From positions 11,904,001 through 11,968,000 of the forward strand of contig OX597821.1 in assembly GCA_951406725.2 (NCBI GenBank): a stretch of 64,000 nt of DNA, written 5' to 3'. Both the position numbers and the translations under genes were made by a program. The notes beneath the pieces are model-generated. The model worked only from the letters and a program-made list of their open reading frames with translations, did not search any database and was not told where the DNA came from. Positions 20,273 to 22,218 of the stretch are shown piece after piece (the stretch's first letter is position 1; each line of letters begins with the position of its first letter). The DNA is from Octopus vulgaris (lineage: Eukaryota).

Positions 20273-21456
20273 GTATGTGTGTAAGAAACATTAATTTTAT
20301 CAATCGGTAATATCCGTCAATTTCATGTAATAAGTTGAAATGTGTAAATCCATATTCAATGCATACTATGGGGACTTTTCTAACAGAAAGCTAACAATTT
20401 TAAGATCTACAAATGTTTAGATCAATACTAGCTGTATTTAATTAACGCTATTGTTGTCACTTACTCGTCATTTACATCGAACCGATATAGTTGATGTTTA
20501 AATTCCTCTGGCATTTGAACTTAAACATACATTCAACAGTAACTCCAAACATGTCGAATGAAACTTAAATTCTGTATAATGTAGAATTATCTTTTATAGT
20601 TCATAGTTATTTATCAGACGAAAGAAACTGCGCGAATGCTCGTAATACAATTTGGCGCTATAATAACTAATACAATTTAGCGTTAATATTTTCCAGTCAT
20701 TTCATATATCTGAATTTCTAAAGTTATAATATTCAAAATTCTATACAATGTACAAAGAAAACCAAGATAGTTATTGATAGAATGTGTTGTCAGTTATGCA
20801 TTTAGATATTGATCTAGGGCTTTGAATCGTAATAAATATTTCTACATATAAGTTGCACTGATATATTATAATTTTTACTGTTACAAAATTCAAAAGAATA
20901 TTTAACATTCAAAATTATTTATTTGCTGAAAGATTAAAGTAAAATATTTAGTTGAAAATACTACTGAATGTACGCTTAAATCATACTACAAGTAGGCATT
21001 AAAAATGAATTGCACCAATAATCTATGACATGGCACCAAGAAATTAGTGTATTAGTGATGCAAAATTCTAGGCACATAGATTCAGTTTCAATTCAATTAG
21101 AATATATATATATATATACACACACATATATATACATATATAAATATATATATATATATGTGTGTGTGTATATATATATACATATATATATATACATATA
21201 TATATATATGTTAAATAATCTTAGGGTAGCAAAAGTATTTTTAGAAAAATTCTTTGTTACCAGTTGTCTAGCGAGAAGGAAAAATTTAGTCAATAGACTA
21301 TACGTTATTCCTAGAAGAATACAGTGTACATTCAAACAGGTAAGAAATAACCAATAATAGGATATCTGACTTACTAGAAAGAGCAGTTAAAACTCCAAGC
21401 CACTAATAGTTACAATTCTGAAAGGGAATGAAAAATAAAGACATTTACCCTATTTT

Positions 21457-21540
21457 TCCTAGACTATGCATAGTTTCTGCAATCTTATATAAATTAAAAT
21501 AAAATTTTAAGTTATATCTGGCGCTGCTTCGTCAGTAGGA
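21457..21540 (-). ncRNA. Type I hammerhead ribozyme motif
   Basis: TCCTA-CTGACGA-A-GCAG..TTGC-A-GAAA-CTATGCATAG-TC-TAGGA. Confidence 0.85.
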
Positions 21541-21931
21541 TGACAGGGATCAACATATAGATACTGGGCGATAAGTAACATGCCACGTGTCGACATGTTA
21601 TAATTTTTTCGAATCCTCCACGCGAGTCAGATATCCTATTATTGGTTATCTCTTATGTGTTTGAATATACAATGCATTCTTCTATGAATAATGTATAGAC
21701 TAAATTTTTCCTTCTCGCTAGACCACTGGTAACATAGAATTTTTCTAGAAATATTTTTGCTACCATAAGATTAATGATAAAAGGTTTTTGGCTAATTCTG
21801 AAAGAAAATCGGCAATTTATATATTTACTGCCGGATAGTTCTGCAATTGTGCGGAAGAATCGAAAAAAATATTGCATATAGACACGTGCCATGTTACTTA
21901 TCGCCCAGTATCTATATGTTGATCCCTGGCA

Positions 21932-22015
21932 TCCTACTGATGAATCAGTGCCAGATATAAATTTAAAGTTTATCTTAATTGATGTAAGATTGCAGAAACT
22001 ATGCATAGTCTAGGA
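21932..22015 (+). ncRNA. Type I hammerhead ribozyme motif
   Basis: TCCTA-CTGATGA-(long stem II region, base weakened)-GAAA-CTATGCATAG-TC-TAGGA. Confidence 0.8.
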
Positions 22016-22152
22016 AAAATAGGGTAAATGTTTTTATTTTTTATTCCCTTTCAGAATTGCAACTATTAGTGGCTTGGAGATTTAACTGCCCCTTCTAGTG
22101 AGTCAGATATCCTATTAATGGAGATCTCATGTGTTTGAAAGTACACTGTATT

Positions 22153-22218
<66 letters not shown>

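Follow-up and report, generated by a model that had tools for sequence, protein, structure and literature searches.

The element at positions 21210-22155 of the window, the 64,000-nucleotide stretch of Octopus vulgaris contig OX597821.1 analysed here, is best explained, with a probability of about 0.6, as one insertion of a short ORF-less unit with a PLE-type hammerhead, a non-autonomous derivative of Penelope-like elements (PLEs) that an autonomous PLE would have copied into (TA)n with its reverse transcriptase-endonuclease. The anatomy of the element, the continuity of its unit across the family and a layout common to five unrelated fold-backs nearby were observed directly. A layout equal to the published PLE pattern, a PLE-type hammerhead and one-sided tails at TA runs count in favor of this reading. 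The layout as such is ordinary for PLEs and occurs six times in the window, an AT-rich, microsatellite-filled stretch of animal-type DNA. Less ordinary is a short ORF-less unit, present in more than one period, that bears the PLE insertion signature.

Anatomy of the inverted pair and its unit in related copies

The element is a mirror-image (head-to-head) pair of arms seated in a TA repeat. The plus arm (21624-22155) has the order A-B-A' with a period of 476. Segment A (21624-21848, 225 nt) forms the spacer between the inverted arms, segment B (21849-22099, 251 nt) follows, and A' (22100-22155) is a second unit start, a partial tandem and pLTR-like direct repeat. A' is identical to the start of A at 49 of 56 aligned letters with one 2-nt gap (blastn E 7.9e-13), confirming the initial annotation, in which the 21624 start recurs at 22100. 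The minus arm (21623 to about 21210) consists of B and the first ~150 nt of A. Its segment B (21373-21623) matches 21849-22099 at 225/251 letters, gap-free. The arm then continues past the B-to-A junction and matches A as far as about 21773 (141/157 aligned letters, with 7-nt and 2-nt gaps). This second stretch comprises the start of A (21312-21372, minus strand, equivalent to 21624-21681 and 22100-22155, with 51/58 letters identical to the first A and 48/56 to A') and a tail found on the minus arm only (21210-21311, A positions ~59-150, equivalent to 21682-21773), ending at 21216-21210 against (TA)n. The earlier description of a minus copy that starts at a permuted point, passes the hammerhead and continues into A-equivalent sequence holds, except that the start is equivalent to 21849 and not to about 21852; the coordinates given there are otherwise right within a few bases.

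The plus and minus arms are ~90% identical, and the four segment pairs compared all differ by 10-14%, a divergence that would fit a single insertion followed by about 5% decay per arm. No host DNA lies between the arms, which abut at 21623/21624. Both outer ends of the element are 3' ends and adjoin (TA)n: a degenerate (TA)n/(CA)n microsatellite on the left (21100-21208) and a (TA)n run at which the plus arm ends on the right (22156-22230). A target duplication is not readable within such a tract. The extension of about 100 nt is confined to the minus arm, with 103 nt from the shared-arm end to the TA run. The two TA-bounded ends and the one-sided extension are additions to the initial annotation, as is the loss of a conserved G at T21945 described below. 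Neither arm starts or ends at a hammerhead cut site, the arm 3' ends lying 145 and about 252 nt past the cut.

The inversion junction (21621-21624) has a CGCG core. The arms overlap by a 2-nt GC if the base before A was C, as it is in that contig (a loose end in run X13). A longer, imperfect overlap of 15-18 nt was considered as a priming helix and rejected. It ranks first or second of 18 terminal-match sites (about -7 kcal/mol, 18-20-nt primers) and is absent from the RNA minimum-energy fold. Beyond 2 nt the overlap is not significant: 30-48 of 476 positions score equally in an anchored alignment, and 23-100 of 1000 shuffles reach the score.

Public sequence contigs reveal that the unit belongs to a family. 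Contigs of 4 runs (24 available) were aligned to 21624-22099, giving 717, 356, 751 and 68 contigs, most under 95% alike; the junction counts that follow rest on 32 listed pieces, with 1882 further pieces outside this set. Among these 32, at least five contigs bridge 21773/21774, the end point of the minus arm, with 31 or more letters on each side, and four of the five differ at 12-14% of letters. At least two listed contigs bridge 21848/21849, one divergent and one with 1 difference in 184 letters; three more cross it 4-5 letters short of the 31-letter rule and were left uncounted. One contig of run X1 runs from 22099 back into 21624. Since divergent contigs bridge every internal junction, the A-B-A order belongs to the whole family and did not arise from a single join here. 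Segment A of related copies holds about 7 and about 9 additional letters, and the unit in those copies is probably near 490 nt; no listed piece spans it whole. Both arms share C21906 and A21907, where most contig depth reads T and C, and these shared minority letters fit a single template. In run X13, guessed to be RNA but possibly DNA, contig depth covers 20 of 30 bins, with none over 21832-21975, a gap given no evidential weight; depth peaks are not taken as copy numbers.

A strand-switch joint 21624/21876, with the same plus-arm start and a partner 27 nt inside the junction of this locus, occurs in runs X1 and X3. It could come from a second insertion that shares its first base with the plus arm, or from this very locus in a relative where 27 nt are absent or failed to align. 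This joint, and a public contig that matches 21720-21903 with 1 difference, speak against two separate adjacent insertions, a later inverted duplication at the DNA level or an assembly artefact. Separate events would account for arms that differ by about 10%, and microsatellites are unstable and attract repeated insertion. However, the same 10% excludes a read fold-back artefact, the arms meet without intervening host DNA, and five unrelated elements share the layout, so that an origin of this kind is highly improbable.

Hammerhead motifs and coding content

Each arm carries one type I hammerhead (plus 21932-22015, minus 21540-21457), in agreement with the initial annotation, which had also placed the plus-strand GUC site correctly at 22010/22011; the predicted minus-strand cut lies at 21462/21461. 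A strict scan returned four matches in the window, namely both arms and a second pair; none of 200 block shuffles gave any. Both motifs combine a 5-bp stem I (UCCUA/UAGGA), CUGANGA, a 51-nt stem II region, GAAA and GUC with a stem III that is a perfect 12-nt palindrome. The minus-arm copy is the better preserved. Its core reads CUGACGA, and its stem II, in which the basal G-C is flanked on each side by one unpaired A, folds alone at a predicted -7.5 kcal/mol. In the plus-arm copy, stems I and III are intact, the conserved basal G of stem II is T (T21945), and distal stem II is disrupted, the same fold reaching just -1.9 kcal/mol. Position 21945 is G in all contigs aligned there (runs X1, X2 and X3), which together with the weaker stem II marks the plus hammerhead as a decayed copy. 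More broadly, the majority of related-contig letters equals the minus-arm letter at 16 of the 26 B differences between the arms (from the 40 of 91 rows listed), the other 10 not being assignable to one arm.

Stem III has no lone-hairpin fold and instead forms a predicted self-duplex of 12 bp at -15.9 kcal/mol, so that the dimer is the predicted active form. On this modeling, the hammerhead in tandem parents would be expected to cut as a dimer, whereas one hammerhead per strand, as at 21210-22155, cannot release a monomer. Loose contig ends before 22004 (21992-22010) point to a related subfamily with an apparently different stem II, a shorter stem III and the same CAGAAAC core; as that core is shared, the extra A before G12 may be conserved.

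Database models and exact patterns returned no comparable motif. Rfam gave 0 matches at gathering score across the window, and its 18 matches at E<=10 within 21150-22220, of which 15 fall on the TA flanks, include no hammerhead. An exact 20-nt hammerhead pattern had 0 viral, 2 metagenome and 0 genome matches; both hits cover 21-29 nt, look like unrelated DNA and were discarded. A weak hammerhead-like match at 54242-54365 (minus), with G-U pairs and a UU site, appeared in a relaxed scan only, was missed by the strict one and is probably due to chance. Just past the hammerhead, 22023-22055 and its minus-arm mirror carry a GT, pyrimidine tract and CAG arrangement of about 31 nt that resembles splice signals, and this stretch has the highest contig depth along the unit. 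PLE terminal repeats can contain introns.

The absence of an ORF, already reported in the initial annotation, is confirmed: no stop-to-stop frame in the element reaches 120 aa. On the hammerhead-sense strand the minus arm stays open for at most 59 codons, and this 59-aa frame had no relative at E<=0.001 among 1.84 billion proteins. Judged by eye, none of the window's 40 frames of at least 120 aa is gene-like, and no RT or GIY-YIG-like frame is evident among them. The RT + GIY-YIG ORF that defines an autonomous Penelope-like element is absent from 21210-22155, and the element is therefore not classed as one.

Could the arms nevertheless be what 5' truncation left of an autonomous PLE with a 476-nt period in its 3' region, with no independent short element at all? 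Most PLE copies are truncated at the 5' end and many stand alone, and opposite-strand hammerhead pairs 100-700 bp apart are described in PMC4209133; the public contigs also do not reach far enough to reveal the sequence upstream of A in other copies. Against this, the PLE tandem period described in a review (PMC6765202), which also treats hammerhead cleavage as a dimer, is the whole element of about 3 kb and not 476 nt, and no coding remnant was found here, which makes this explanation distinctly unlikely.

Neighboring fold-backs and a candidate insertion route

Self-comparison of the masked window yielded the six fold-backs examined, including 21210-22155. A SINE-like inverted pair (26413-27482) and four weaker inverted pairs of 71-79% identity were left out. 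The five others lie at about 7933-8204 (7933-8245 with its tail; arms 99%, spacer 7 nt, tail 40 nt), 31228-31598 (31160-31604 with flanks; arms 93%, spacer 23 nt, one-sided extension of about 56 nt), 43198-43421 (43198-43545 with its tail; arms 100%, spacer 0 nt, tail 126 nt), 45429-45822 (45429-45975 with its tail; arms 96%, spacer 50 nt, tail about 150-165 nt) and 56163-56749 (56066-56749 with its tail; arms 92.5%, spacer 3 nt, tail 95 nt). In five of the six, one arm stops at (TA)n while the other extends 40, 95, 103, 126 or 151 nt to a second TA run; by chance, 2.6% of window positions fall within 10 nt of such a run. The fold-back at 31160-31604 lies outside a TA tract and has a 12-bp target duplication (31160 and 31593). 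An internal direct repeat is present in 21210-22155 only.

The six have no clear mutual similarity, with best scores of 14-30 and two pairs slightly over the maximum of 100 shuffles. The element at 45429-45975, unrelated in sequence to 21210-22155, has (TA)n at both ends and supplies the second hammerhead pair, one type I motif per arm (45574-45489 minus, 45677-45762 plus) with an 8-nt palindromic stem III. By strict scan, the hammerhead is absent from the other four (7933, 31160, 43198 and 56066). The window also holds a ~385-nt tRNA-headed SINE-like repeat in three copies (26413-26797, 27097-27482 and 37576-37954; 86-92% identical), two of which face each other 300 nt apart; in appearance the repeat resembles octopus SINEs.

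The layout has a published counterpart. PLE insertions typically show partial tandems, a neighboring copy that is inverted and 5'-truncated, a tail of 30-40 bp that is often confined to one end, and a bias toward microsatellites (Craig et al. 2021, PMC8557442), and the same pattern, together with transport in trans by pLTRs alone, is described by Arkhipova et al. (2013, PMC3846280). The traits of EN+ PLE insertions found at 21210-22155 are a partial tandem with a pLTR-like repeat, a head-to-head inverted 5'-truncated copy, a tail on one end, a PLE-type hammerhead in the terminal repeat and a microsatellite target, with (TA)n at both outer ends. How PLE inversions originate is left unresolved in PMC8557442, where later trimming is considered for the tail. 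Frangieh et al. (2024, PMC11167929) describe an anole PLE protein that starts reverse transcription at two internal sites bounding the tail, and that cuts and extends both strands of AT-rich DNA, with ribozyme cleavage unneeded in vitro.

A candidate route can be outlined for the octopus insertion. The template would have been a read-through RNA slightly longer than one unit. Priming on each strand of a nicked TA tract, with the two start sites separated by about 100 nt, would have produced the tail, and cDNAs of 534 and about 414 nt, each stopped short at a different point, may then have been joined head to head at the 2-nt GC microhomology, after which both arms would have decayed by about 5%. 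The 225-nt spacer (A) is continuous with the plus arm, the arm without a tail, a position relevant to the origin of PLE inversions. If the first strand had simply been folded back and copied, the copied arm would exceed its template in length unless one end was later trimmed; priming on both target strands requires no such loss and is therefore the preferred step. We infer this two-strand priming from the present analysis; the literature on Penelope and twin priming, screened by title or abstract start, yielded none on it.

Several observations weigh against a PLE-driven insertion. An autonomous partner was found neither among the window's frames nor through the 59-aa protein search, the tail of about 100 nt exceeds the 30-40 bp published for PLEs, and four of the six fold-backs are without a strict-scan hammerhead. 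The extra A before G12 is likewise not among the PLE hammerhead traits described in PMC4209133, and the junction overlap beyond 2 nt falls short of significance.

Retrozymes, Penelope-like elements and the octopus unit

Non-LTR retrozymes are tandem canonical hammerhead repeats of under 45% GC, expressed as circles, with PLEs as candidate mobilizers (Cervera and de la Pena 2020, PMC7229834). Li et al. (2026, bioRxiv 10.64898/2026.07.22.740005) argue that animal retrozymes are non-autonomous PLE derivatives, report consensus lengths of 51-972 bp and make activity conditional on two hammerhead units in succession; one of the nine Xenopus dimers assayed there cleaved and eight did not. The initial annotation had offered copying round a circular RNA as one reading of the different permutations of the two arms. 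The step from permutation to circle is not supported, since two 3' starts and two 5' truncations on a linear template slightly longer than one unit yield both permutations, which are thus not independent evidence of a circle. The layout is moreover typical of PLE insertions as described in PMC8557442 and PMC3846280, and no arm ends at the cut site. Of the alternatives then offered, a circle or a tandem PLE structure, the latter fits best, while the circular step is unsupported: nothing in the locus requires a circular template.

A true non-LTR retrozyme would imply tandem parents cut by paired hammerheads into ~480-nt monomers that were circularized, the PLE reverse transcriptase then going 1.12 times round. 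A plus arm exceeding one unit is expected under such a history, but linear read-through RNA accounts for the 1.12 units equally well. The whole unit is continuous in related copies, its size and 32% GC lie near those of described retrozymes (51-972 bp; under 45% GC), and PLEs are the mobilizers proposed for them (PMC7229834). Stem III could form the 12-bp self-duplex (-15.9 kcal/mol). On the other side, the Xenopus dimers mostly failed to cleave (8/9; bioRxiv 10.64898/2026.07.22.740005), and the circular fold is weakly stable against 40 shuffles (z about -2). Contigs of the possibly-RNA run, which may be DNA, match parts of the family, one of them across the B-to-A junction. The locus has an ORF-less unit that is short, repeats and carries one type I hammerhead, but it has one hammerhead per strand instead of two consecutive ones on the same strand, the working criterion for an active retrozyme. 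The motif is also of PLE type, with a 5-bp helix I and a 51-nt helix II region in place of the canonical 6-bp helix I, 4-bp helix II and loop-loop contact, and neither arm ends at the cut site. A retrozyme origin is accordingly unlikely. The element likely resembles a retrozyme parent in its working and a retrozyme in size, while departing from retrozymes in two defining respects at this locus.

PLE and circle options are not mutually exclusive, as circles have been proposed as PLE template (PMC4209133) and retrozymes as non-autonomous PLEs. A ~480-490-nt ORF-less family that spreads as hammerhead-made RNA circles, inserted by a PLE enzyme priming both target strands, is a tentative combination of the two and a doubtful one. 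If true, it would provide direct genomic evidence of PLE machinery moving retrozymes and reveal a hammerhead variant that tolerates one additional A on each side of stem II. The link between retrozymes and PLEs so far consists of co-occurrence and phylogeny, PLE mobilization being called a candidate in bioRxiv 10.64898/2026.07.22.740005 and PMC7229834; a family of this kind would let it be tested from copy ends alone. No octopus retrozyme or octopus PLE hammerhead was found described by title or abstract start, although Repbase, Dfam or supplementary tables may already hold the family. A repeat study of Octopus vulgaris counts 31 recently active Penelope-like families, and the word 'ribozyme' is absent from its main text (PMC13282606).

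As a non-autonomous PLE derivative, the octopus unit can be placed among known systems. With non-LTR retrozymes (PMC7229834, bioRxiv 10.64898/2026.07.22.740005) it shares a short, AT-rich, ORF-less unit and one type I hammerhead per unit. Unlike them, it has 1.12 tandem units only, a PLE-type and not a canonical hammerhead and an inverted layout with a tail. With PLE insertions (PMC3846280, PMC8557442) it shares the inverted 5'-truncated copy, partial tandem, one-end tail, microsatellite target and hammerhead near the 3' end; it differs in being ORF-less, in a period of 476 nt and not kilobases, in a tail of about 100 nt and not 30-40, and in its 225-nt spacer.

In metazoan PLE hammerheads as described in PMC4209133, helix I is short, helix II is long, helix III is palindromic and position 10.1 is preceded by an extra nucleotide. 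The octopus motif agrees in being of type I, with a 5-bp helix I, a long helix II, a palindromic helix III, an extra nucleotide between 9 and 10.1 and G10.1-C11.1, and in occurring as a pair of motifs on opposite strands. It departs in a longer, 12-nt helix III palindrome, in a helix II spanning 51 nt, and in one more unpaired A before G12 or, alternatively, an A-A mismatch closing the core. Naiads prefer (TA)n yet are reportedly without canonical hammerheads, so the PLE clade of the octopus unit is not assigned. Chlamys MRC1 (PMC8557442) differs from the octopus unit in its green-algal clade, reportedly also without canonical hammerheads, and in its known similarity to an autonomous family. 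It is like the octopus unit in being a non-autonomous PLE, and MRC1-type elements form pLTRs and head-to-tail copies.
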